A stretch of 64,000 nt of DNA, taken from the NCBI GenBank assembly GCA_964387845.1, contig CAYLXA010000005.1, forward strand, positions 96,001 through 160,000. Reading direction: 5' to 3'. The DNA comes from an uncultured bacterium. GTDB taxonomy: Bacteria > Omnitrophota > Omnitrophia > Omnitrophales > Abzuiibacteriaceae. The translations under genes and the position numbers were made by a program. The notes below the pieces were generated by a model. The model saw only the letters and a program-made list of their open reading frames with translations. It searched no databases and was not told the origin of the DNA. Shown here piece by piece: positions 29,701-41,540 of this stretch. Numbering within the stretch: the stretch's first letter is position 1; the number at the start of each line of letters is the position of its first letter.

Positions 29701-29715
29701 ACTTTGAGGTGTGAT

Positions 29716-31350
29716 ATGCCCGCAAAAGAATTAACTTATTCAGAGGAAGTACGCGCCAAGATTAAAAAAGGCGTCGATATCCTCGCCAAGACCGTCAGTG
29801 TCACCTTGGGGCCGCGCGGCCGCAATGTGGTGCTTGACCGCAAGTTCGGTTCTCCCTTAATCACCAAAGACGGCGTCACCGTCGCGAAAGAAATTGACCT
29901 TGAGGATCCGTATGAAAATATGGGTGCTCAGATGGTCCGCGAAGTGGCTGAGAAAACATCAGATGAAGCCGGTGACGGAACCACCACCGCGACGGTTCTC
30001 GCGCAAGCGATCGTCTCGGAAGGTGTCAAGAATGTCACAGCCGGCGCCAATCCGATGGCCCTTAAGCGCGGAATCGATAAAGCCGCGGCGGCCGTCATTG
30101 AATCCATCAAGAAATTAGCGTCTCCGATTAAAGGCAAAGAAGAAATCAAGGCCATCGCTACGATCAGTGCCAACAACGACAGCGTGATCGGCCAGCTTTT
30201 GTCGGATGCGATGGAAAAAGTCGGCAAAGACGGCGTCATCACGGTCGAAGAATCCAGCACCACCAAGACGGAGCTCGAAGTCGTCGAAGGTATGCAGTTT
30301 GACCGCGGTTACATTTCGCCTTATTTCATCACCGACGCGGACCGGATGGAAGTCGTCCTCAAGGATCCCTTGATTCTCATTTACGAAAAGAAGATTTCTT
30401 CCGTAAAAGAAGTCGCCCCGCTCCTCGAGCAGGTAGTCGGCATTGGAGCGCCGCTTCTATTAATCTGCGAAGAAGTCGAAGGCGAAGCGCTTGCCGTTCT
30501 CGTCGTGAATAAAATCCGCGGAACGTTCCAGGCAGCAGCCATCAAGGCGCCCGGATTCGGCGACCGCAGGAAAGCCATGCTCGAAGACATCGCGATTTTA
30601 ACGGGCGGCAAATTCATTTCCGAAGACATCGGTGTGAAGCTCGAAAATGTGGATCTTTCGATGCTCGGAAAAGCCAAGCGTGTTGTGATCGATAAAGACA
30701 ACACCACGATCATTGACGGCGCCGGTAAAAAAGCGGCCGTGAAAGAGCGTTGTGAACTTATTAAGAAACAAATCGATAAATCAGATTCCAGCTACGACAA
30801 AGAAAAACTCCAGGAACGCCTCGCGAAGCTTTCAGGCGGTGTGGCGTTGATTAAAGTCGGTGCTACGACTGAAACCGAAATGAAAGAGAAAAAAGCGCGC
30901 GTGGAAGATGCGTTTCATGCCACAAAAGCATCCGTCGAAGAAGGTGTGGTCGCGGGAGGCGGTGTGGCGCTCGTTCGTTCATTGAAAGCGCTTGATTCTC
31001 TGAAGCTGGAAGGCGACGAGAAGGTGGGTGCCGAAATCATCCGCCGCGCGATCCAAGAACCGCTCCGTAAGATCGCGTCCAACGCGGGTTTCGATGCGTC
31101 TGTCGTGATCGGCAAGGTTCTGGAAGAGAAGGGCAACTTCGGCTTTAACGCTTATTCAGGCGAATACGGCGACTTAGTGGAGCAGGGAATTATTGATCCT
31201 GCAAAAGTGGTCCGCAAAGCGCTCGAGAATGCGTCAAGCATCGCGGGTTTGATTCTCACCACCGAAACCGGCATCGTCGAAAAGCCGAAAGACAAGGACG
31301 AAGAAAAGTCGAAGAAGAAAAATTCTTCACACGCTGGGCATTCTCATTAA
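29716..31350 (+). CDS. groEL: Chaperonin GroEL, copy 2 (with His-rich tail)
   Basis: A full Cpn60 paralogue. Its C-terminus is '[18 protein letters not shown]' instead of GGM repeats. Start taken at 'MPAKELTY'. Confidence 0.9.
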
Positions 31351-31453: not shown

Positions 31454-32485
31454 TCAGCTCAAGCCCGCTTCGAACGACAACGTTTCTCGCTTCAATTCCT
31501 TTCGCAATTCTTTTTCCGTAGGCAGGTATAACTTATACTTTGACGCAAAGATTTGCTTACTTCCTTTCGGAAGCGTGTAGCGTACGACCGCTTCCTTCTT
31601 ATCCTCGCACAAAATAAGGCCCACTGTCGGCTGGTCGGTTTTTTGTTTCAACTCGCGGTCATAGTAATTCACATACATTTGCATTTGACCGATGTCTTGA
31701 TGAGTTAGTTTTCCGATTTTCAAATCAATCAGCACAAAGCACCTGAGCAGCGTGTTATAGAAAACCAGATCGATATAGAAATGATCCCCATCAAGTGTGA
31801 TCCTTTTCTGCCGGGCGACAAACGTAAATCCTTTTCCCAGCTCGAGCAAGAACTTGGAAAGATTATCAATCAGCGCTTGCTCCAGTTTGCTTTCATACAG
31901 CTTCGGGTTGGATTCAAGGCCGGTAAATTCCAGAACGTACGGATCTTTAATCATGTCCGTGTAAGTTCGAAGGTCCTGGCCTTTCTTGGCTAATTTGAAG
32001 AGCCCTTTCTTATCTTTGCTTAAAGAAAGCCGTTCAAAAAGCAGGGAACCCTTTTGACGCTCCAATTCCCGGACTGACCAATTGTTTTTGACACATTCAA
32101 TTTCATAAAAGGAGCGTGCCTCCGGTCGTTCGACGCGCATTAAAATCCGGTAATGTGTCCAGCTCAATTCGTGACGCAGTGCGTCACGAATTGGGAAGGT
32201 AAGATAAAACTGACGAATATATCGCAAATTCGAATCATCAAAGCCTCTCCCAAAATCTCTTGTTAGTTTTTCCGAAAGCGACTTCAATAACGTCTCACCG
32301 TAAGTGGCACGTTTTTGGCCTTTTTGTTCTTCTTCCACAATTTCACGGCCGATTAACCAATAGGCCTGCACCATTTCGGTGTTGACGGTACGCGCAATGT
32401 TGGAACGTGCCGATTCTATGATCTGACGGATTTTGGAATAGACTTGGTCTTGCTTTGAGTTTTTCTTTTGAACTTCTTGCGGCAT
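31454..32485 (-). CDS. DUF1016 / YhcG-like PDDEXK nuclease-domain protein
   Basis: '...ARTVNTEMVQAYWLIGREIVEEEQ...' has the YhcG/DUF1016 architecture, with an N-terminal helical part and a C-terminal PD-(D/E)xK-like part. Confidence 0.7.
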   Translation of the reverse strand: MPQEVQKKNSKQDQVYSKIRQIIESARSNIARTVNTEMVQAYWLIGREIVEEEQKGQKRATYGETLLKSLSEKLTRDFGRGFDDSNLRYIRQFYLTFPIRDALRHELSWTHYRILMRVERPEARSFYEIECVKNNWSVRELERQKGSLLFERLSLSKDKKGLFKLAKKGQDLRTYTDMIKDPYVLEFTGLESNPKLYESKLEQALIDNLSKFLLELGKGFTFVARQKRITLDGDHFYIDLVFYNTLLRCFVLIDLKIGKLTHQDIGQMQMYVNYYDRELKQKTDQPTVGLILCEDKKEAVVRYTLPKGSKQIFASKYKLYLPTEKELRKELKRETLSFEAGLS

Positions 32486-32814
32486 GAGTAATTTGCCCTC
32501 CCTTTTTTGGTAGCCCTTCCGCCTTTTGGCTTCAGGACGATGCTTCTAACTGCGTGAAGCATCGGGCAAATCACTTAATGTGGTGTCTTTATGCGATGAT
32601 CGCAACCCTGTCCCAGCGCCACTTTGAAACAAAAACTTGTTTCTAATCAAAGCGCTGGACTGGACTCATTTCCTATAGACCGAACGGTTCCATTAATGAA
32701 AATGAGTCCTGGTACTGCTTGATGCGAGAGTGAAGGATATCATATGTCCGGTCCGTATCAAAATGATTTTTTTCAGTTAAATTAATCCCGAAAGGGTATA
32801 TTTTATTAATTCGA

Positions 32815-32918
32815 GTTAAATATTATACCTTATAAGGTATAATATTTTTAAATTATACCAAAAAAGGTATAATATTTTACTAAAGTAGTTGATATTATAC
32901 CCTTAATGGTATACTATT
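32815..32918 (+). promoter_or_regulatory. Three TATACC-N5/6-GGTATA operator palindromes upstream of hipB
   Basis: 'tataccttataaggtata', 'tataccaaaaaaggtata' and 'tatacccttaatggtata'. The third overlaps the first in-frame ATG. Confidence 0.6.
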
Positions 32919-32923
32919 CTGCC

Positions 32924-33145
32924 ATGGATTACATTGGAGAAGAAATTCAAAATTTGCGTAAAAGAGCAGGGCTCACTCAACGAGAATTCGCGAAGCGAGT
33001 GGGTGTGGGGCTTAGATTTATTCGTGATCTTGAACAAGGAAAATCTACCGTACGGCTTGATAAGGTAAATCAGGTGCTTGAATTTTTAGGGCATCATTTG
33101 GAGATTGTTGCCAACCGTGAACGAAAAAATATTCAGAAAAGCTAG
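32924..33145 (+). CDS. hipB: XRE-family HTH protein, HipB-like
   Basis: 'LRKRAGLTQREFAKRVGVGLRFIRDLEQGK' is a Cro/C1-type HTH. It is the first gene of a three-gene hip operon. Confidence 0.75.
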   Translation: MDYIGEEIQNLRKRAGLTQREFAKRVGVGLRFIRDLEQGKSTVRLDKVNQVLEFLGHHLEIVANRERKNIQKS

Positions 33146-33461
33146 AGTTAACTACAAAGATGAACTTGCCGGTTATTTACAAGAAACCGAGAATGGTTTT
33201 CAATTTCTGTATGATGAAAATTATTTGCGTTCCGGCGGACAGCCAATTTCTGTGTCACTTCCTTTAACGAATGAGCCTTACGAATCAAAAGAGCTTTTTA
33301 GTTTCTTCCGCGGACTTTTGCCGGAAGGTTGGTACCTCGATATCGTGAGTGCGGCTAAGAAAATCGATACCAATGATTCTTTCGGCCTGCTTCTGGCTAC
33401 CACAGGCGACACGATCGGCGCAGTGACCGTATATCCAATCCGGGAAAGCGATGAGTCCTAA
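33117..33461 (+). CDS. hipS: HipS-like protein (stand-alone HipA N-terminal subdomain)
   Basis: About 115 aa, similar to HipA N-terminal subdomain 1. The start is uncertain (GTG at 33117 or TTG at 33105). It overlaps the next gene by 11 nt. Confidence 0.6.
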   Translation: MNEKIFRKARVNYKDELAGYLQETENGFQFLYDENYLRSGGQPISVSLPLTNEPYESKELFSFFRGLLPEGWYLDIVSAAKKIDTNDSFGLLLATTGDTIGAVTVYPIRESDES

Positions 33462-34311
33462 TCTGTTTGAAGAAATGTTTGGCACGAGCGAAGCTCCTAC
33501 AATCCCACTTTCGTTGAAGGATGTTCCTCTTCAAGCGCAAGTGATGGCGGGGTATATGTCCATTTCAGGGGTGCAGCCAAAATTGGTGCTGAAATTGGAT
33601 AAGCGTAAAAATGAGCTGACGGTGGCTCAGACGGATGGTGAATATATTTTAAAACCGCAAATCCCGCATTTCCCCCAGACGCCCGAAAATGAAAACTGCT
33701 GTATGGATATCGCTCAGGCGTTTGAGATTGAGGTGCCGCCCCATTGCCTTCTTCCACTGAAAGACGGAAGCCTGGCTTATGCGGTGAAGCGTTTCGATCG
33801 TGTGAGCGGCGAAAAAATCAATCAAGAAAGCTTTTATCAAATTCTTGAAAAAAGAGACAAATATATGGGCTCTCTGGAACAAATCGGTAACAGCCTGAAA
33901 CAAATTTCCGTAGTGCCGGGCCTGGATGTTCAGCTTTTCTTTGAATTAGTCGTTTTCAATTTTCTGATCGGCAATGGTGACGCGCATTTTAAAAATTACT
34001 CCATTTCTTATTTAAAGGATGGCATCCGGCTTTCTCCGGCCTATGATCTGGTTTGTTCCAAGCTGGTGATTCCGGGCGATTCGGATTCCGCACTCACGAT
34101 CAATGGCAAGAAGAATAATCTTAGGCGGGGCGATTTTGATGTGTTGGCTGCTTATTTAAAAATTCCGGAAAAGGTTCGTTACGATAAGTTTGCAGGTCAG
34201 CTTGGAAAAATGGAGCAATTGATTCGAGCCAGCCAACTCTCGGCAGATTTTAAAAAGACGTTTATTCAAATAGTTTCTTCACGTTTTGATCGGCTTAAAT
34301 TGGTGAATTAA
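33451..34311 (+). CDS. hipT: HipT-like Ser/Thr kinase toxin (HipA C-terminal kinase domain)
   Basis: 'LIGNGDAHFKNYSI' is the catalytic motif and 'SPAYDLVCS' is also present. At 286 aa it lacks the HipA N-terminal subdomain, which is supplied separately. Confidence 0.7.
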   Translation: MSPNLFEEMFGTSEAPTIPLSLKDVPLQAQVMAGYMSISGVQPKLVLKLDKRKNELTVAQTDGEYILKPQIPHFPQTPENENCCMDIAQAFEIEVPPHCLLPLKDGSLAYAVKRFDRVSGEKINQESFYQILEKRDKYMGSLEQIGNSLKQISVVPGLDVQLFFELVVFNFLIGNGDAHFKNYSISYLKDGIRLSPAYDLVCSKLVIPGDSDSALTINGKKNNLRRGDFDVLAAYLKIPEKVRYDKFAGQLGKMEQLIRASQLSADFKKTFIQIVSSRFDRLKLVN

Positions 34312-34480
34312 GCGCGCTGAGCCCGGCACGATTAGAACAGGTACCAAAACATTACAAAGTAGTTAATCTAATTTCCTTATATTCACAGTTAAAATATGTA
34401 TATTTATATACATATATATGTATTGAATAGTACATTTATATGTATATAATAATACATATTATATTTGACATTAACACTTT

Positions 34481-34909
34481 TTGAGGGTAGATTTTCTCGT
34501 ACCGGAGGAAGCTGAATATACTAGATTAGTCAAATTTATGACCGCGGCCGGCTATAAACAAGTGACAGGCTATGGTTGGCAGAAAAAAGGAGAGGCAATC
34601 ATTTTTGATCTTTATGTCGGTAATTCGGTTTATTCAACGGAATTATTGTCATCGCCGCTTGAAAAAGGCGGCCATCAGAAATTGAAGGAATGGAATAAAA
34701 TTTATTTAGGTGCTTTAAATCCGGTAGATCTGATTATTTCAAAAATGTTTCGCGGCAGCGAAGTGGATGTCCAGGACAGTTTAGCGTTACTCAAGCATGA
34801 GAAAATTAGTATTGAGGAATTAAAGAAACGATACATCAAAACAGCCAAATATGATGTAAGCGAAGACAGGGTATTGAAAAATTTAGATACATTACTCAGG
34901 AGGCTTTAA
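34481..34909 (+). CDS. Hypothetical protein, first gene of an uncharacterised two-gene module
   Basis: The ORF begins at a TTG, with an alternative ATG at 34538. An AT-rich palindromic promoter region lies upstream. No confident family was assigned. Confidence 0.5.
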   Translation: MRVDFLVPEEAEYTRLVKFMTAAGYKQVTGYGWQKKGEAIIFDLYVGNSVYSTELLSSPLEKGGHQKLKEWNKIYLGALNPVDLIISKMFRGSEVDVQDSLALLKHEKISIEELKKRYIKTAKYDVSEDRVLKNLDTLLRRL

Positions 34910-34911
34910 TC

Positions 34912-35583
34912 ATGGATAAAAGTGATTTGTTGGACCAATTGGCTCAGCATGGCTATTCATTGATGAAGCCAAAATCAGCCGAGCCGGCCGAAAAACTGCT
35001 GGAGGCATTGCTGAAGCAGGATGATGCGCGTCTTTTGGAGGGCTTTCCGGTGGTGTTGGCCAACGCGTTTGACCAAAAAGACGGCTTGACGTGGGAAAAT
35101 CCTAAATGGAATGCTGAGGAATGGCAGGGAAAAAACAGAAGAAAATTGGTGGCCATGCTGTCTTTTAGTTATTATTTGTTTCGTTTATTTGGATTGGCGG
35201 AGTCTGAAAAGAAAGTTTTAGATTTGGTCAAGAAATTAAAAGGGGATAAAACGCTTCTTCATTTAACCGAATCTTTTGCGGAGTCCAAAGAAGTAGACTT
35301 GGACGGTGTCTCGCTATCAACGGAAAGATTAAAAAGCGCTTTCCGCCAATATGTATTAACGTCGGATCAAGGCGACGAAGTCGAAAAAAAGAAACGCGCG
35401 TTGGAATTAGAGCTGCTGCTTTCCGAACTGTTCAGCACGCGGCAAAAAGAACTGCTTGAGAAGCGGCTTGGTGGGGAGGAATTCACCAAAACAGAGCGTG
35501 AATACTATTACCGCGTCGTCAAAAAACGCTTGAAAGCGCTCGCGAGTGACGAACTTCACCAGATGGCCCGTTCGTTGGTTTAG
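34912..35583 (+). CDS. Hypothetical protein, second gene of the two-gene module
   Basis: It starts 3 nt after the upstream gene. The C-terminal 'RQKELLEKRLGGEEFTKTEREYYYRVVKKRLKAL' looks helix-turn-helix-like. Confidence 0.55.
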   Translation: MDKSDLLDQLAQHGYSLMKPKSAEPAEKLLEALLKQDDARLLEGFPVVLANAFDQKDGLTWENPKWNAEEWQGKNRRKLVAMLSFSYYLFRLFGLAESEKKVLDLVKKLKGDKTLLHLTESFAESKEVDLDGVSLSTERLKSAFRQYVLTSDQGDEVEKKKRALELELLLSELFSTRQKELLEKRLGGEEFTKTEREYYYRVVKKRLKALASDELHQMARSLV

Positions 35584-35633: not shown

Positions 35634-36020
35634 CCTATCCGCCGAGCCTTACCCCTTACCCCTAAGTTTCAATCTGGACACAAAGCTTTTTGAGGCATAA
35701 ATCCTACTTAAATTGTGCCTGTACCTGTCCACCAAAATGATGCCTGGCACCTTTCTGTTAAGGATTCATATGCAACTCCTTTTTCCTGTAACATCAGGAT
35801 ATCAGGTGTTGCACTAGTAACTTGAACTCAAGCAGGTACCGAAGTAGAAATCCACTTCCTATCCGCTATACGTTGTTCGCGAACCAATAAAATAGTTGTT
35901 GAAATATAATATAAAGATTGTAAAATAATTACCTCACGCAAACAGTAAACCCCTCTCACGCCTTCACGCGCAAAATCAAACTAATTTCGTAATGCGTTCA
36001 CAAGAAAGGCGGATTTGCCA

Positions 36021-36809
36021 ATGAAAAAAGAAAAACTCATTTCTCAGAGGGATGGTTTACCAATTCGTTCAAGCGGTCCTTGGATCCGCAAAAAACATCA
36101 CTATTTAATCAGATATGCTGACATATTTACCCGAGGGATGAAGAACAAATGGGAATTGACGTACCTTGATCTTTTTGCCGGGCCCGGATGCTGCTTAATT
36201 GAGAAAGAGATGATCGAATTAGCCGGATCTCCGTTACTTGCATTAGGTTTTGATTTTAGGAAATACATTTTTATTGAACAGGATCATGATGACCTTGAAG
36301 CATTGAAACAGCGGTGCTCAAAATCACCAAAACTAAGCCAGATTCAATTCATAGAAGGGGATTGTAATAAGAATATTGATCAAATTCGATTGACGGGATT
36401 AACGCTGGCTTTTATCGATCCAACTGGTATTGACGTTCATTTTGAAACGATTAAACGACTCACCTCTTTAGGGCCGGTGGACCTGCTAATAAACATACCA
36501 TTTCACATTGATATCAAGCGCAACTTCACGAAGTATATAAAAACCCAACATAAAAAATTGGATCTCTTTCTTGGCGGTAAGGTACCGTGGGATAAATTGC
36601 ATCAAGAAAGGGATGTTTTAGAGTTATACAAAAAGCGAATAAAGGATTTGGGGTATCAAACCGTAGAATACAGCGACATAGTTGTCAGTAATACAAACAA
36701 AGTTCCTATGTACTTTCTTTTCTTTGCGTCCAAGCATTCGCGTGGTGTAGAATTCTGGAAGAAAATTACCAAGAAAGACGAAACCGGACAACTGGAGTTA
36801 GAACTCTAA
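36021..36809 (+). CDS. Three-Cys-motif partner protein TcmP family (MTase-like fold)
   Basis: '[11 protein letters not shown]' resembles SAM-binding motif I. 'FIDPTG' sits in the place of a DPPY-like motif. The gene is adjacent to a Gp37/Gp68 (DUF5131) gene, which is the defining context of TcmP. Confidence 0.6.
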
Positions 36810-36811
36810 GA

Positions 36812-37570
36812 ATGAGCGATAAATCAAATATCGAATGGACCGACGCGACATGGAATCCGGTAACGGGATGCAATAAAATCAGCCCCGGATGTAAAAACTG
36901 CTACGCCGAAACTTTCGCTGAGCGCTGGCGGGGAATTCCGGGCCATCCCTACGAACAGGGTTTTGACCTCAGATTATGGCCTGAGCGTGTCGGCTTGCCA
37001 TTATCGTGGAAAGAGCCGCGGATGATTTTTGTCAATTCCATGTCTGATCTTTTTCATAAAGATGTTCCGGATGACTTTATAGGGAAAGTATTTGAAACGA
37101 TGCTCAAAGCTAATCAGCATACTTTCCAGGTTCTGACCAAGCGGCCTGAGCGCATGGTTGAATGGACCAAGAAAACATTCGGCAATCAAAAATTACCGCG
37201 TCATATCTGGCTTGGTGTTTCGGTTGAAAACCAGGATTACGTATGGCGAATCATGTATCTTCAGCAAACACCGGCTCAAATCCGTTTTCTTTCGGTTGAG
37301 CCTCTTTTGGGGCCTGTTGTTTTAAAATCTTCAAATTTAAAAGGCATTCATTGGGTGATCGTGGGTGGCGAGAGCGGACACAGAGCCCGTCCTATGAATC
37401 CCGACTGGGCGCGTGATATCCGCAATCAATGCGAAAAATATGGCGTCGCTTTTTTCTTCAAACAATGGGGCGCTTTTAACGCGAAAGGCGAACGCGTTGG
37501 TAAAAAAGCCGCCGGCCGGGTTCTCGACCGCAGAACCTGGAACGAAATGCCAATTACAATCCCCGCCTAG
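36812..37570 (+). CDS. Phage Gp37/Gp68 family protein (DUF5131), three-Cys motif
   Basis: The N-terminus '[27 protein letters not shown]' is the family signature and includes a CX6CX2C motif. Confidence 0.7.
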
Positions 37571-37625: not shown

Positions 37626-37744
37626 CATCATGATATAATTCCTATCGCGACGGCGCCCACATTGACCGCCGCGTGATGGCACTTGCGCCAGCGTTACCGC
37701 AGGTGCCTGCGAACGAAGTGACGCAGAATAAAGCGCAAGTGTCT

Positions 37745-38092
37745 ATGTCCGACATCAAGAAACTCACCGAAAAGATCAAGCAATTCCGCGACGAACGGGA
37801 TTGGAAGCAATTCCACAACCACAAAGATATGGCACTTTCACTTGTTCTTGAAGCCGCTGAACTTTTAGAACATTTCCAGTGGAAAACATTGGATGAAGTT
37901 GAAAAGCACGTGAAAACCTCAAAAGAGGATGTTTCAGATGAGCTTGGCGATGTCGCGATCTATCTTTTCGAGCTCGCCGATAACTTAGGGATAGACCTAT
38001 CAGAAGCGGTAGAAAGCAAGCTTCTTAAGAATGCCAGAAAATATCCTATACAAAAATCTAAAGGCACCATAACCAAGTACAATCAATTGTAA
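37745..38092 (+). CDS. MazG-like nucleotide pyrophosphohydrolase (all-alpha NTP-PPase)
   Basis: 'ERDWKQFHNHKDMALSLVLEAAELLEHFQWK...ELGDVAIYLFELAD' is the MazG/dCTPase-like EExxE/D signature. Confidence 0.7.
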   Translation: MSDIKKLTEKIKQFRDERDWKQFHNHKDMALSLVLEAAELLEHFQWKTLDEVEKHVKTSKEDVSDELGDVAIYLFELADNLGIDLSEAVESKLLKNARKYPIQKSKGTITKYNQL

Positions 38093-38099
38093 AGATTAA

Positions 38100-38876
38100 A
38101 TGCCCGGCAATGAATCTGCAGTAATAAAGTATTTGTTCAGAAATAAGAATCGTCTCGAGTTACCTCATTTAGGTTTAATAAAATCAATTGGGTTTCCAAA
38201 TGGACTCACAAATAACTACAAAGAAATAAAAAATGAAAATGAAATTTTAGAATGTTGCTCAGACAATGCTCGAAAAAAAGCAGATGTCTATATTAATGGG
38301 CAAGGCGTATCAATAAAACAATCAGGAGGAAGTTTTTCTTTTAATCGTTTGCAGCGTGCCGAGTTAATAGAAGTTTTTGCTAGTTTAATTTTTGATGCCC
38401 CTCATAATGTTTTAACTCAATTAGATAAAGAAGTTGAAAAATTTCATTTTGGAAAATTATCAGGACGTGGTAGGCCGTGGAAAGATTTTTTCTCAAATAA
38501 AGAATTTTATGCTTTAACAAATGCTCTTATGATGTTGCAATCTCCAAATTATGGACTTTCTCTTCATCCCGCTAAATTTATTCTGGAGGCTTCAAAAAAT
38601 TTAACAACCAATCCGAGTTTAAAAGTTTATACTTTTGATGAATATTTTGAACGTTATAACGAGTTTTTCAGGATTGCTATAAGACGTGTTTGGTTGGGGC
38701 AGAATAGTAAATCTGAGCATGGCCGTGCAAAAAGTCTAATAGCAAAACCTGAGAATGCAACCTGGGTCTTTAATACAATTTCCGGAACGCCAAGAAGTGG
38801 TTGGAAAGTTGATTTTCCAAAGTCGGAAAGAAGAACTGTGTATTATTTGATGATAGAAAAAGTAAATTCAAAATGA
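38100..38876 (+). CDS. Hypothetical protein, putative type II restriction endonuclease by context
   Basis: Very AT-rich, with no family recognised. It directly precedes vsr and overlaps it by 4 nt, upstream of the dcm-type methyltransferase. Confidence 0.4.
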   Translation: MPGNESAVIKYLFRNKNRLELPHLGLIKSIGFPNGLTNNYKEIKNENEILECCSDNARKKADVYINGQGVSIKQSGGSFSFNRLQRAELIEVFASLIFDAPHNVLTQLDKEVEKFHFGKLSGRGRPWKDFFSNKEFYALTNALMMLQSPNYGLSLHPAKFILEASKNLTTNPSLKVYTFDEYFERYNEFFRIAIRRVWLGQNSKSEHGRAKSLIAKPENATWVFNTISGTPRSGWKVDFPKSERRTVYYLMIEKVNSK

Positions 38877-39301
38877 CATTTGTATTTCAAACGACAAGTC
38901 AACGCTCCGAGTTAATGAAAAAGATTAAAGGAGTTAACACTAAGCCAGAAATTGCTTTTGCAAAGAAACTTGAATTATACAAAGTCAAGTTTAGAAAACA
39001 TTTTAAAAAACTCCCTGGAGTACCGGATTTTGCTATTTTGAGAGGTAGAGTAGCGGTGTTTATCGATGGGGAGTTTTGGCATGGATACAATTGGGTTAAT
39101 AAAAAGAAAAGGATAAGATCCAACCGACAATACTGGATTAAAAAAATAGAAAGAAATATACTAAGAGATTCGATAAATATGAGAGAATTAAAGAAAATAG
39201 GTTGGTATCCTTTAAGATTTTGGCAGCATGAAGTTGTTGCTGAGGGTGATAAATGTATAAAGAAAATCGAAAAAATAATGCAGCGACGAAGTTCAAAATA
39301 G
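38873..39301 (+). CDS. vsr: Very-short-patch-repair endonuclease
   Basis: 'KPEIAFAKKL...PGVPDFAILRGRVAVFIDGEFWHG'. Confidence 0.85.
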   Translation: MTFVFQTTSQRSELMKKIKGVNTKPEIAFAKKLELYKVKFRKHFKKLPGVPDFAILRGRVAVFIDGEFWHGYNWVNKKKRIRSNRQYWIKKIERNILRDSINMRELKKIGWYPLRFWQHEVVAEGDKCIKKIEKIMQRRSSK

Positions 39302-40383
39302 CATCTTTTTTTGCTGGCTGTGGCGGCCTAGATTTAGGTTTCCAGCAAGCGGGCTTTGATGTTGTTTGGGCAAATGAATACGATAAAACAATTTGGGCTA
39401 CCTACGAACACAACCATCCTCATACGTTTTTATGCAAGAAATCTATTATCGATGTCAAATCAGATGAAATTCCAACTGTTGTTGGCATGATAGGTGGCCC
39501 GCCATGCCAAAGCTGGAGTTTAGCCGGAGCCATGAGGGGAGTAAAAGACCCGCGAGGTAAACTTTTTTATGAATACATAAGAATCTTGGCCGATAAACAA
39601 CCATCATTTTTCTTAGCCGAAAATGTTGCGGGCATTGTTTCTAGCACTCATGTGAATTCATTTGAAAATATCCTTAAAAAATTCGAAGAAATTGGTTACG
39701 TTACTTCATATAAATTGCTTGATGCAAAATCCTACGGCGTTCCTCAGGATCGGAAAAGAGTTATCATTGTAGGGTATTCTAAAGGTTTACATAAGAAATT
39801 TGAATTCCCGCAAGAAACTCATGGTGTAAATTCAGCGAATGGCGACTTATTCAAGCCACATTTAAAACCCTATGAAACTTTACGCTCTGCAATTGACGAT
39901 TTGCCTAATCCGGTGCCTGCTAGTTTGAAAAATAAGTCGAACAGCAGAATTCGTATTCCAAATCACGAATATATGACAGGAGGTTTTTCTACCATTTACA
40001 TGTCACGAAATAGGAGAAGAAATTGGAATGAGCCTTCATTTACAATTCAGGCGGGAGGCCGGCATGCACCGCTACATCCATCAAGCACTGAAATGATTAA
40101 AAAAGAGCCAGATTGGTGGGTATTTAAAAAGAAAGACAAAAAGGCTTATCGGCGAATGTCGGTAAGAGAATGCGCACGAGTTCAAACCTTCCCTGATAAA
40201 TTCATATTCAAATATGATTCAATTGCGGATGGTTATAAAATGGTTGGTAATGCAGTTCCCGTCGAGTTGGCGCGTGTTATAGCATTAAGAATAAAGTCAG
40301 ATTTGATACCAGAGAAAAATAATCTTAAAAGATCATCCCTTCGCAAAACACCCTATTCCGAATTGGTGTTAGCTTCCTCATAA
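39253..40383 (+). CDS. dcm: DNA (cytosine-5)-methyltransferase
   Basis: Motif I 'FAGCGGLDLGF', motif IV 'GGPPCQSWS' and 'ENV'. The start is uncertain and overlaps the vsr 3' end. Confidence 0.9.
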   Translation: MYKENRKNNAATKFKIASFFAGCGGLDLGFQQAGFDVVWANEYDKTIWATYEHNHPHTFLCKKSIIDVKSDEIPTVVGMIGGPPCQSWSLAGAMRGVKDPRGKLFYEYIRILADKQPSFFLAENVAGIVSSTHVNSFENILKKFEEIGYVTSYKLLDAKSYGVPQDRKRVIIVGYSKGLHKKFEFPQETHGVNSANGDLFKPHLKPYETLRSAIDDLPNPVPASLKNKSNSRIRIPNHEYMTGGFSTIYMSRNRRRNWNEPSFTIQAGGRHAPLHPSSTEMIKKEPDWWVFKKKDKKAYRRMSVRECARVQTFPDKFIFKYDSIADGYKMVGNAVPVELARVIALRIKSDLIPEKNNLKRSSLRKTPYSELVLASS

Positions 40384-40424: not shown

Positions 40425-41540
40425 ATGAGGCAAATATTCATAGTAGTGGCAGGAGGCAATGCTGCTGCTGATCGTCACTTCGAAGATACAATCCAACGTA
40501 AACGTACCTTAGATGAAGTGCGGCAATTTCTATCTTCCCAAGAAATTCATGAGATCGAATCAGTTTATCATACAGCACCTTTTATTGTCTGGGGCGCTAT
40601 TCCCGGCCCAATGAATATTCCGCGTTGGCAAAGTATGCGTGTTGGCGATATTGTTTTGATTTACACAAGAGGACATATCCGATTAATTGGCGAAGTGGCA
40701 TCAAAAGTAAGAAGTAATTCGTTGGCTCGCTATTTTTGGAAAGAAACACCCGAAAACAAAACCTGGGAATTGATTTATTTTATTGTAAATGAACAAAGGG
40801 TAAATATACCGATGCCTTTATTAAATGAAGCGCTTGGTTATAGCGCAAGTTACTCTCCGAGGGGATTTAGTTCTGTCGATTCTGATAAGGTCAAATCATT
40901 CGTTAATCGTTATGGCGATATATTCGAAGGGCTTAAAACACTCAGTAAAGGCGAGAAACTAATCGAAATTTCGCCAGCGAAAAAGTTAGAAGTCCAACAG
41001 GTTGAAGAAAAGATTGAACAATCATCGAATGAGCATGACGAAATGCAATGGCGGTTAATTAGATTGGGCAAATTGTCAAGGTACGATGTTTGGGTTCCCA
41101 GAAATGATCAAGGGCACAGCTTTGGAGGTCAACGATTTCGGGATTTTGTGTTGCCGGAATTCCACGAGAGTTTAGATGTTCCACCCAGTATTAAAAATAT
41201 CGATGTCGTGTGGAAATTTGGTCCTTATTCGATCACATCTGCATTTGAAGTCGAACATTCAACATCCGTTTATTCAGGAATTTTAAGGCTTTCGGATCTG
41301 AGAACCGAAACACCGAATTCACAATACCCACTTTTTATTGTTGCTGACGAAGCAAGAAAGCGGAAGGTATTTTCGGAACTTGCGCGCCCCACTTTCTCAA
41401 ATCCCTTTTTGCGACTTCACGAAGTAATACGATTTTTGAGTTACGAAAGAATCAGGGACATTGATGAAAAGTATAAGCAAGAACCTGAATTTGAACCGCA
41501 AATACTCTTTACTGCCGGAGAAACTTTCGAGAAAAATTAA
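40425..41540 (+). CDS. PUA/EVE-like N-terminal domain fused to a putative PD-(D/E)xK nuclease. Candidate modification-dependent (type IV-like) restriction enzyme.
   Basis: The N-terminus 'VGDIVLIYTRGHIRLIGEV' is EVE/PUA-like. The C-terminus 'IDVVWKFGP...AFEVEHS' is (D/E)xK-like. Confidence 0.5.
   Translation: MRQIFIVVAGGNAAADRHFEDTIQRKRTLDEVRQFLSSQEIHEIESVYHTAPFIVWGAIPGPMNIPRWQSMRVGDIVLIYTRGHIRLIGEVASKVRSNSLARYFWKETPENKTWELIYFIVNEQRVNIPMPLLNEALGYSASYSPRGFSSVDSDKVKSFVNRYGDIFEGLKTLSKGEKLIEISPAKKLEVQQVEEKIEQSSNEHDEMQWRLIRLGKLSRYDVWVPRNDQGHSFGGQRFRDFVLPEFHESLDVPPSIKNIDVVWKFGPYSITSAFEVEHSTSVYSGILRLSDLRTETPNSQYPLFIVADEARKRKVFSELARPTFSNPFLRLHEVIRFLSYERIRDIDEKYKQEPEFEPQILFTAGETFEKN

Follow-up and report, generated by a model that had tools for sequence, protein, structure and literature searches.

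The subject of this report is a compact operon, hipB-hipS-hipT, in a 64,000-nucleotide stretch of DNA from an uncultured bacterium of the Omnitrophota (assembly GCA_964387845.1, contig CAYLXA010000005.1, positions 96,001 to 160,000 of the forward strand; this whole stretch is termed the window). Judged from its sequence, the locus is very probably an intact, functional tripartite HipBST type II toxin-antitoxin module equipped with its own operators. The module is an ordinary new member of the family known from E. coli O127 and Legionella. The direct basis for this is homology, collinearity with HipA, conservation of particular residues and of the split between hipS and hipT, and the conservation and placement of the operators.

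Gene layout and protein identities

The three genes (Table 1) are tightly linked, in the order hipB-hipS-hipT and all on the plus strand. The first two overlap by 29 nt. Between hipS and hipT, which are in different frames, the overlap is exactly 11 nt (ATGAGTCCTAA, 33451-33461), as had been given in a preliminary description of the sequence. In the hipT frame there is a TAA stop at 33424-33426, 8 codons 5′ of the hipT ATG. Overlapping genes of this kind would couple translation of hipB, hipS and hipT. The same description had a helix-turn-helix (HTH) gene followed by a protein corresponding to HipA N-subdomain 1 only, and then by a 286-aa kinase with the motif GNGDAHFKN, and this is borne out both by the open reading frames (ORFs) and by Pfam.

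The hipB product matches HTH_3 (E=1.9e-10) and, in NCBIfam, couple_hipB TIGR03070 (80.2 bits against a cutoff of 71.65). In the hipS product the sole domain is the one matched by both Couple_hipA, PF13657 (E=1.9e-25), and TIGR03071 (E=8.2e-27), the former recovering by formal search the HipA N-subdomain similarity on which the first assignment of this ORF depended. The GNGDAHFKN-containing hipT product matches HipA_C PF07804 only (E=1.2e-45). When solved relatives were sought among all PDB sequences, the best match of each protein was to its Legionella pneumophila (Lp) counterpart: HipT to HipT(Lp) (8ezr_B, E=6.3e-43; next, E. coli O127 HipT, 7ab3_C, 2.2e-16), HipS to HipS(Lp) (7vkb_B, E=5e-17; next, O127 HipS, 7ab3_B, 3.3e-12) and HipB to HipB(Lp) (8ezt_A, E=5.6e-8), with canonical HipA appearing at only ~1e-4. 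In pairwise BLAST, HipS 15-107 aligns with E. coli K-12 HipA 10-105 and HipT 76-282 with HipA 198-429, the split pair being collinear with the K-12 protein (locus L083). Alignment with O127 HipS and HipT and with canonical HipA thus upholds the domain split initially proposed.

Conservation of the split and of functional residues

A search of 5.8 billion proteins yielded 7575 matches to HipT at E<=1e-10. The best 120 of these share 63-100% identity, are 263-314 aa long and have PF07804 only, the PF13657 N-subdomain being absent from all 120; the few named proteins among them are from Omnitrophica/Omnitrophota metagenome-assembled genomes. A scan of species-representative genomes gave 80 related loci (L003-L082), mostly in Omnitrophota metagenome-assembled genomes, with a few from Elusimicrobia, Aminicenantes, Firestonebacteria and others. 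When tblastn was run with HipB, HipS and HipT of the window, the order hipB-hipS-hipT is found in every related locus with enough room for it. Wherever a locus holds both hipS and hipT (78 loci) the two are separate, hipS with its own stop and hipT with its own start, and a fused hipA is present in 0 of these 78. An uninterrupted single-frame hipA in relatives, named in the preliminary description as the finding that would point to a pseudogene, accordingly did not turn up, and both the solved relatives and the retention of the split favor the HipBST layout over a frameshifted hipA. Most junctions are overlaps or gaps of no more than 20 nt, with overlaps of 4, 8, 11 and 20 nt and gaps of 1-14 nt being common, and 5 loci have hipS and hipT in one frame, kept apart by a stop codon. 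(A few larger negative junction values stem from the convention by which the start was placed at the first in-frame ATG upstream.)

Residue conservation was read from alignments of 79 orthologues. HipS E70 and W72 are invariant in 79/79, and the P-E70-G-W72 segment aligns with the P-E-G-W motif of O127 HipS (Glu63, Trp65). In HipT the invariant residues are S37, S39, G40, Q42, K44, G174, N175, D177, H179, N182, P196, A197, Y198 and D199, and the motifs concerned are S37-I-S-G-V-Q-P-K-L (the Gly-rich loop), G-N-G-D177-A-H-F-K-N and P-A-Y-D199. The catalytic D177 is equivalent to O127 D210 and HipA D309, and the Mg-binding D199 to O127 D233 and HipA D332. HMMER aligns S37-I-S39 with O127 S57-I-S59, so that the conserved serines anticipated for the N-terminal part of HipT are present, invariant and equivalent to the O127 pair. 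S37 and S39 are, by this equivalence, probable autophosphorylation sites that would tune activity.

Two further observations concern this part of HipT. The residue just before the M-S-I-S loop motif is Tyr35 in the window protein, and is Lys in 73/79 orthologues and Arg in 4/79. Distant HipT relatives have an N-terminal CxxC-x(9-12)-HxxC arrangement that is zinc-knuckle-like (L065:2774-3682, L078:2935-3873 and L085:1420-2358, the HipT of a Runella plasmid included); the window segment compared for Cys loss is 33451-33520, and Legionella HipT retains one Cys only.

Operators, promoter and start codons

The sequence TATACC-N6-GGTATA occurs exactly three times in the 64 kb against 0.05 expected, a number reached in 0/100 shuffles. 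There are no further sites with up to one mismatch elsewhere in the 64 kb, and allowing two adds only O4 (4 matches versus 0.25 expected). Of the earlier claim of three TATACC-N5/6-GGTATA palindromes 5′ of hipB, the three exact sites stand, while the spacers prove to be N6 throughout and a fourth, degenerate site (32783-32800), just beyond the span first described, is to be added. Spacing in the window is 41/30/42 bp.

Relatives share this arrangement closely. Across 71 related loci the motif, with up to two mismatches, has a density of 13.5 per kb in the 200 nt 5′ of hipB and of 0.05 per kb elsewhere in those loci (~260x); at least two sites are present in 64/71 and three to four in 43/71. 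They are located at about −142, −101, −70 and −30 from the hipB start (spacing ~41/31/41), the first of these being equivalent to O4, and the consensus is TATACC-[C/T]T[A/T][T/A]A[G]-GGTATA. In most relatives a TTGnnn hexamer stands 1 nt before the proximal site, the right arm of which extends into a TAnnnT hexamer. These comparative data support the palindromes behaving as HipB operators, with binding by HipB suggested by their architecture and conservation.

The HTH ORF extends over 32906..33145 (79 aa from its first ATG) and has a second in-frame ATG at 32924. The first, used in the public gene call, is an unlikely start since it lies within O1 and the promoter spacer, since hipB orthologues align from the residue encoded at 32924, and in view of the distance from ATG to −10 in relatives. 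ATG 32924 is 6 nt after the predicted −10, and in ~55 related loci the first in-frame ATG is 4-10 nt past the −10, which points to a leaderless hipB mRNA; translation of hipB probably starts at 32924 on such an mRNA. In the more distant relatives L062-L078 the leader measures 13-43 nt and includes a Shine-Dalgarno sequence of GGAG type. That the third palindrome overlaps the first ATG of the HTH ORF, as was pointed out at the outset, is true of ATG 32906, which is probably not the real start. For hipS, TTG 33105 was considered and set aside, GTG 33117 being the better match to orthologue N-termini and to the public gene calls (114 aa).

Table 1. Features of the hipBST operon, its control region and neighboring genes (window coordinates)
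Feature	Coordinates	Strand	Remarks
hipB	32924..33145	+	73-aa XRE/Cro-type HTH repressor; in-frame ATG 32906 gives a 79-aa alternative
hipS	33117..33461	+	114 aa, GTG start, equivalent of HipA N-subdomain 1; TTG 33105 gives a 118-aa alternative
hipT	33451..34311	+	286-aa HipA-core Ser/Thr kinase
O4, distal degenerate operator	32783..32800		TAATCC-CGAAAG-GGTATA; 2 mismatches, in left arm; 41 bp 5′ of O3
O3, operator	32824..32841		TATACC-TTATAA-GGTATA; perfect 6-6-6 palindrome; position conserved in relatives
O2, operator	32854..32871		TATACC-AAAAAA-GGTATA; position conserved in relatives
O1, proximal operator	32896..32913		TATACC-CTTAAT-GGTATA; fills promoter spacer, overlaps −10
Predicted sigma-70-type promoter	32889..32917	+	−35 TTGATA 32889-32894, 17-nt spacer, −10 TACTAT 32912-32917; consensus scan
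DUF1016/YhcG nuclease	31454-32485	-	PADLOC PDC-S02, E=1e-151
DUF6036 nucleotidyltransferase-like gene	34481-34909		
223-aa partner of DUF6036 gene	34912-35583		no family match
PDC-M41A/B pair	36015-36809, 36812-37570		PADLOC; B protein is DUF5131
MazG-like gene	37673-38092		
Vsr	38873-39301		
C5 DNA methylase	39253-40383		
REase-II-like gene	40425-41540		

At their right arms O3 and O2 have the sequence GGTATAAT (32836-32843 and 32866-32873), giving perfect TATAAT hexamers. By symmetry such hexamers also occur on the minus strand (TTAAAA-18-TATAAT at 32851-32822 in the scan); these may be extra or divergent promoters, e.g. towards the DUF1016 gene 340 nt away. Some Omnitrophota/Planctomycetia-labelled metagenome-assembled genomes have two hipBST paralogues each (L022 and L026 in isolate KR13_N1.mb.50, L056 and L080 in isolate SRP178699_co1_477). 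Because the operator consensus is common to the whole clade, cross-regulation is conceivable, and the HipB of one copy might act on the other.

Comparison with characterized Hip systems

For all three proteins the closest solved relative is the Legionella pneumophila HipBST system (Lpg2368-Lpg2369-Lpg2370; PDB 7vkb, 7wcf, 8ezr, 8ezt), the HipT proteins being roughly 35-40% identical. The two systems agree in gene order and resemble each other in the size of HipB (~73-76 aa), and both have an array of 18-bp 6-6-6 operators with the proximal one at the promoter. For Legionella, three conserved operators of 18 nt, each containing a 6-nt inverted repeat, have been shown by electrophoretic mobility shift assay (EMSA) to be bound by HipB(Lp) (Lin et al., mBio 2023, PMC10653801). 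The Legionella O1, TTACTG-CTATAA-CAGTAA from the authors' oligonucleotide table, overlaps the promoter, lies 24 nt 5′ of the start codon and abuts the −10, and O1 of the window is its analogue. The inter-operator gaps are 53 bp, and the motifs are unlike those of HipBA and do not occur upstream of O127 hipBST (PMC10653801). The half-site is TATACC/GGTATA in the window as against TTACTG/CAGTAA in Legionella, and start-to-start spacing is 30-42 bp as against 71 bp, the window having the additional degenerate fourth site. Sequence identity between the two sets of operators was not found; what is shared is architecture, with TAC/GTA cores offset by 1 bp per arm.

Plasmid-borne relatives exemplify each operator type. 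A Legionella adelaidensis plasmid has three TTACTG-type sites 71 nt apart 5′ of its hipBST, with O1 abutting TATATAAT. A Runella slithyformis conjugative plasmid, whose hipBST has 44% HipT identity to that of the window, has upstream GTACC-N-GGTATA sites of the same type as those in the window, and the window's operator family therefore reaches Bacteroidota.

At the protein level the window and Legionella systems differ in features of regulatory interest. HipS has Trp72 in the window where HipS(Lp) has Ile, and the Gly-rich loop has S-I-S with two serines where Legionella has S-V-Q with one (Ser54). The window HipT is also shorter by ~17 residues at its N-terminus than that of Legionella, and its hipB is probably leaderless whereas the Legionella leader is ~20 nt. 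Lpg2370 is additionally reported to be a Dot/Icm effector, an aspect without counterpart in the window.

The E. coli O127:H6 system (PDB 7ab3, 7ab4, 7ab5) is likewise tripartite, with E63/W65 of its HipS matching window E70/W72 and, in HipT, an S-psi-S loop (S57/S59 for S37/S39) together with D210 for D177 and D233 for D199. Its HipT is, however, much more distant overall (E=2.2e-16, aligned over residues 35-202 only) and, at 335-340 aa, contains insertions relative to the 286 aa of the window protein. In sequence terms, then, the window clade combines Legionella-like overall sequence with O127-type regulatory residues (S-I-S in HipT and Trp in HipS) and an operator sequence of its own.

With E. 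coli K-12 HipBA there is likeness in the kinase fold, the catalytic motifs, the HTH repressor and the multiple palindromic operators that overlap the promoter. In its length of 18 bp and its TAT/ATA ends, the classical hipBA operator, TATCC-N8-GGATA, resembles those of the window as well. In HipBA, though, the kinase (440 aa) includes N-subdomain 1 and the antitoxin role falls to HipB, whereas in the window that subdomain is a separate protein and the presumed antitoxin. Similarity to K-12 HipA is weak (E ~1e-4 against PDB; 28-32% identity in pairwise BLAST), and a single HipA of ~440 aa comprising N-subdomain 1 and core is found neither in the window nor in any of the 78 relatives.

HipBST has so far been characterized only in E. 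coli O127, Haemophilus/Tolumonas and Legionella, and its range is here extended from Gammaproteobacteria into Omnitrophota and neighboring uncultured phyla, with thousands of HipT relatives in the public protein collection. The operators constitute a second, independent and very well conserved HipBST operator family, 6-6-6 like the only experimentally defined one (that of Legionella), which supports the idea of multi-operator autoregulation by HipB as a general HipBST feature. With O127-type residues on a Legionella-like sequence, the clade also offers a helpful reference for comparison in the debate over what autophosphorylation does. Current understanding is left intact by these results, and from their domains all three genes already receive the right labels in standard annotation pipelines.

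Proposed mechanism and points that weigh against it

For toxicity, its neutralization, DNA binding, autophosphorylation, the leaderless start and the nature of the target, we infer from homology. Free HipT would phosphorylate an essential translation factor, most probably one of the aminoacyl-tRNA synthetases, and so bring growth to a halt. HipS, in effect a detached HipA N-subdomain 1, would act as the antitoxin, as it does in HipBST systems studied previously (PMC6581861, PMC8262856). It would bind HipT beside the Gly-rich loop and insert Trp72, the counterpart of O127 Trp65, which inserts near that loop and is essential for antitoxin function (PMC10627512). The inserted Trp72 would hold the loop in a conformation unable to bind ATP, in keeping with the finding that HipS binding prevents ATP binding (PMC9325769). 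HipB would join the complex and repress the operon via its array of 18-bp operators, three perfect and one degenerate; because O1 fills the spacer of the TTGATA-17-TACTAT promoter, HipB bound there would exclude RNA polymerase.

Several points weigh against reading the locus as an intact HipBST module that works in this way. The target is one: O127 HipT targets TrpS, and HipT(Lp) is rescued by neither TrpS nor GltX (PMC10653801). The TrpS target is shown only for O127 and its close relatives and, since TrpS and GltX fail to rescue the closer relative, TrpS is not to be read across to the window HipT. The TATACC half-site differs from the Legionella TTACTG, so that HipB binding does not follow from sequence identity. 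The window HipT and its close Omnitrophota relatives are without the N-terminal Cys-rich segment (~18 aa deleted), and a scan for intrinsic terminators 3′ of hipT gave none that was convincing. Lastly, an AlphaFold2 model of HipT built from 27 close homologues is of low confidence (mean pLDDT 61.8). Foldseek with this low-confidence model ranks HipT(Lp) 7wcf first (TM 0.70), then O127 HipT and then HipA, an order that offers weak corroboration of the sequence matches.

Genomic context and alternative interpretations

The operon is just 3′ of groEL (29704-31350) in a low-GC stretch of ~31.4-44.5 kb (GC 0.33-0.47 versus ~0.49 in the flanks). This stretch starts directly behind groEL and is dense in accessory and defense-like genes, namely the neighbors listed in Table 1. 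The setting looks like a defense or accessory island, and is compatible with a role in defense or stabilization without being evidence for one. A tRNA scan found none in the whole 64-kb window and an Rfam scan no family in 31-36 kb, and therefore neither an RNA component nor a tRNA-flanked island boundary is indicated; the borders of the low-GC stretch showed neither tRNA nor integrase. Phage genomes gave no close relative (best match 32% identity over 72% of the query), and plasmids gave distant relatives only (<=44% identity), including the Runella and Legionella plasmids with the same three-gene layout.

Against this background the alternative that fares best has the HipBST homologue serving mainly for anti-phage defense (abortive infection) or for stabilization of a genomic island, instead of persistence-type growth control, with a target that is perhaps not TrpS. 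Besides the base composition, it draws on neighbors that match candidate defense systems (PDC-S02, PDC-M41A/B and the Vsr/C5-methylase/REase-II-like cluster), on the failure of TrpS to rescue HipT(Lp), the closest characterized relative, and on weak matches of HipT itself to PADLOC PDC-M03A (1.5e-9). PADLOC PDC families are, however, candidates only and the support they lend is contextual, and the lack of a close relative in phage genomes also tells against it. The interpretation is a possible, though on balance an unlikely, one. Because it concerns biological role, it is compatible with the molecular mechanism proposed above. A broader version would have a large Omnitrophota-centered HipBST subclade, set apart from the two characterized systems (compact ~286-aa HipT that has lost CxxC...HxxC, leaderless hipB, a phased four-site array at 41/31/41 bp common to paralogues within one genome and so permitting cross-regulation, and a defense-island location), acting as an abortive-infection kinase module with a non-TrpS target, and is more doubtful still.

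Much less probable is that the locus represents another system with a HipS partner (hipJS, or hipIN with HipS-HIRAN) or the reversed-order hipEB instead of HipBST proper. Several short Hip kinases with HipS-like partners have indeed been described (Gerdes et al. 2021, PMC8262856). In those, however, the HipS-like gene is 3′ of the kinase gene or carries HIRAN, and an upstream HTH gene is lacking, whereas the window has the order HTH-HipS-kinase and a HipS with no extra domain and no HIRAN; in addition, the best solved matches are to the two characterized HipBST systems. Finally, a canonical hipA pseudogenized by a +/-1 indel at ~33451-33461, for which the joint collinearity of HipS and HipT with full-length HipA and the overlap of two ORFs in different frames might be cited, is ruled out by the presence of two genes in 78/78 relatives with junctions as varied as overlaps of 1-20 nt, gaps of 0-20 nt and 5 same-frame cases with a stop, and is further at odds with the 263-314 aa, PF13657-less composition of the 120 closest proteins, with products far nearer to solved HipS and HipT than to HipA, and with the invariant functional residues kept in both parts.

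Apart from the HipBST module, attention is drawn to AT-rich inverted and direct repeats at 34390-34463, just 5′ of the DUF6036 gene. Among them are 33-nt arms with 88% complementarity, direct repeats of 22 nt and a perfect ATATGTATAT/ATATACATAT pair. They overlap promoter-like TTGAAT-16-TATAAT and TTGACA-17-TAGATT sequences, and may serve as operators for another module, one of two genes.

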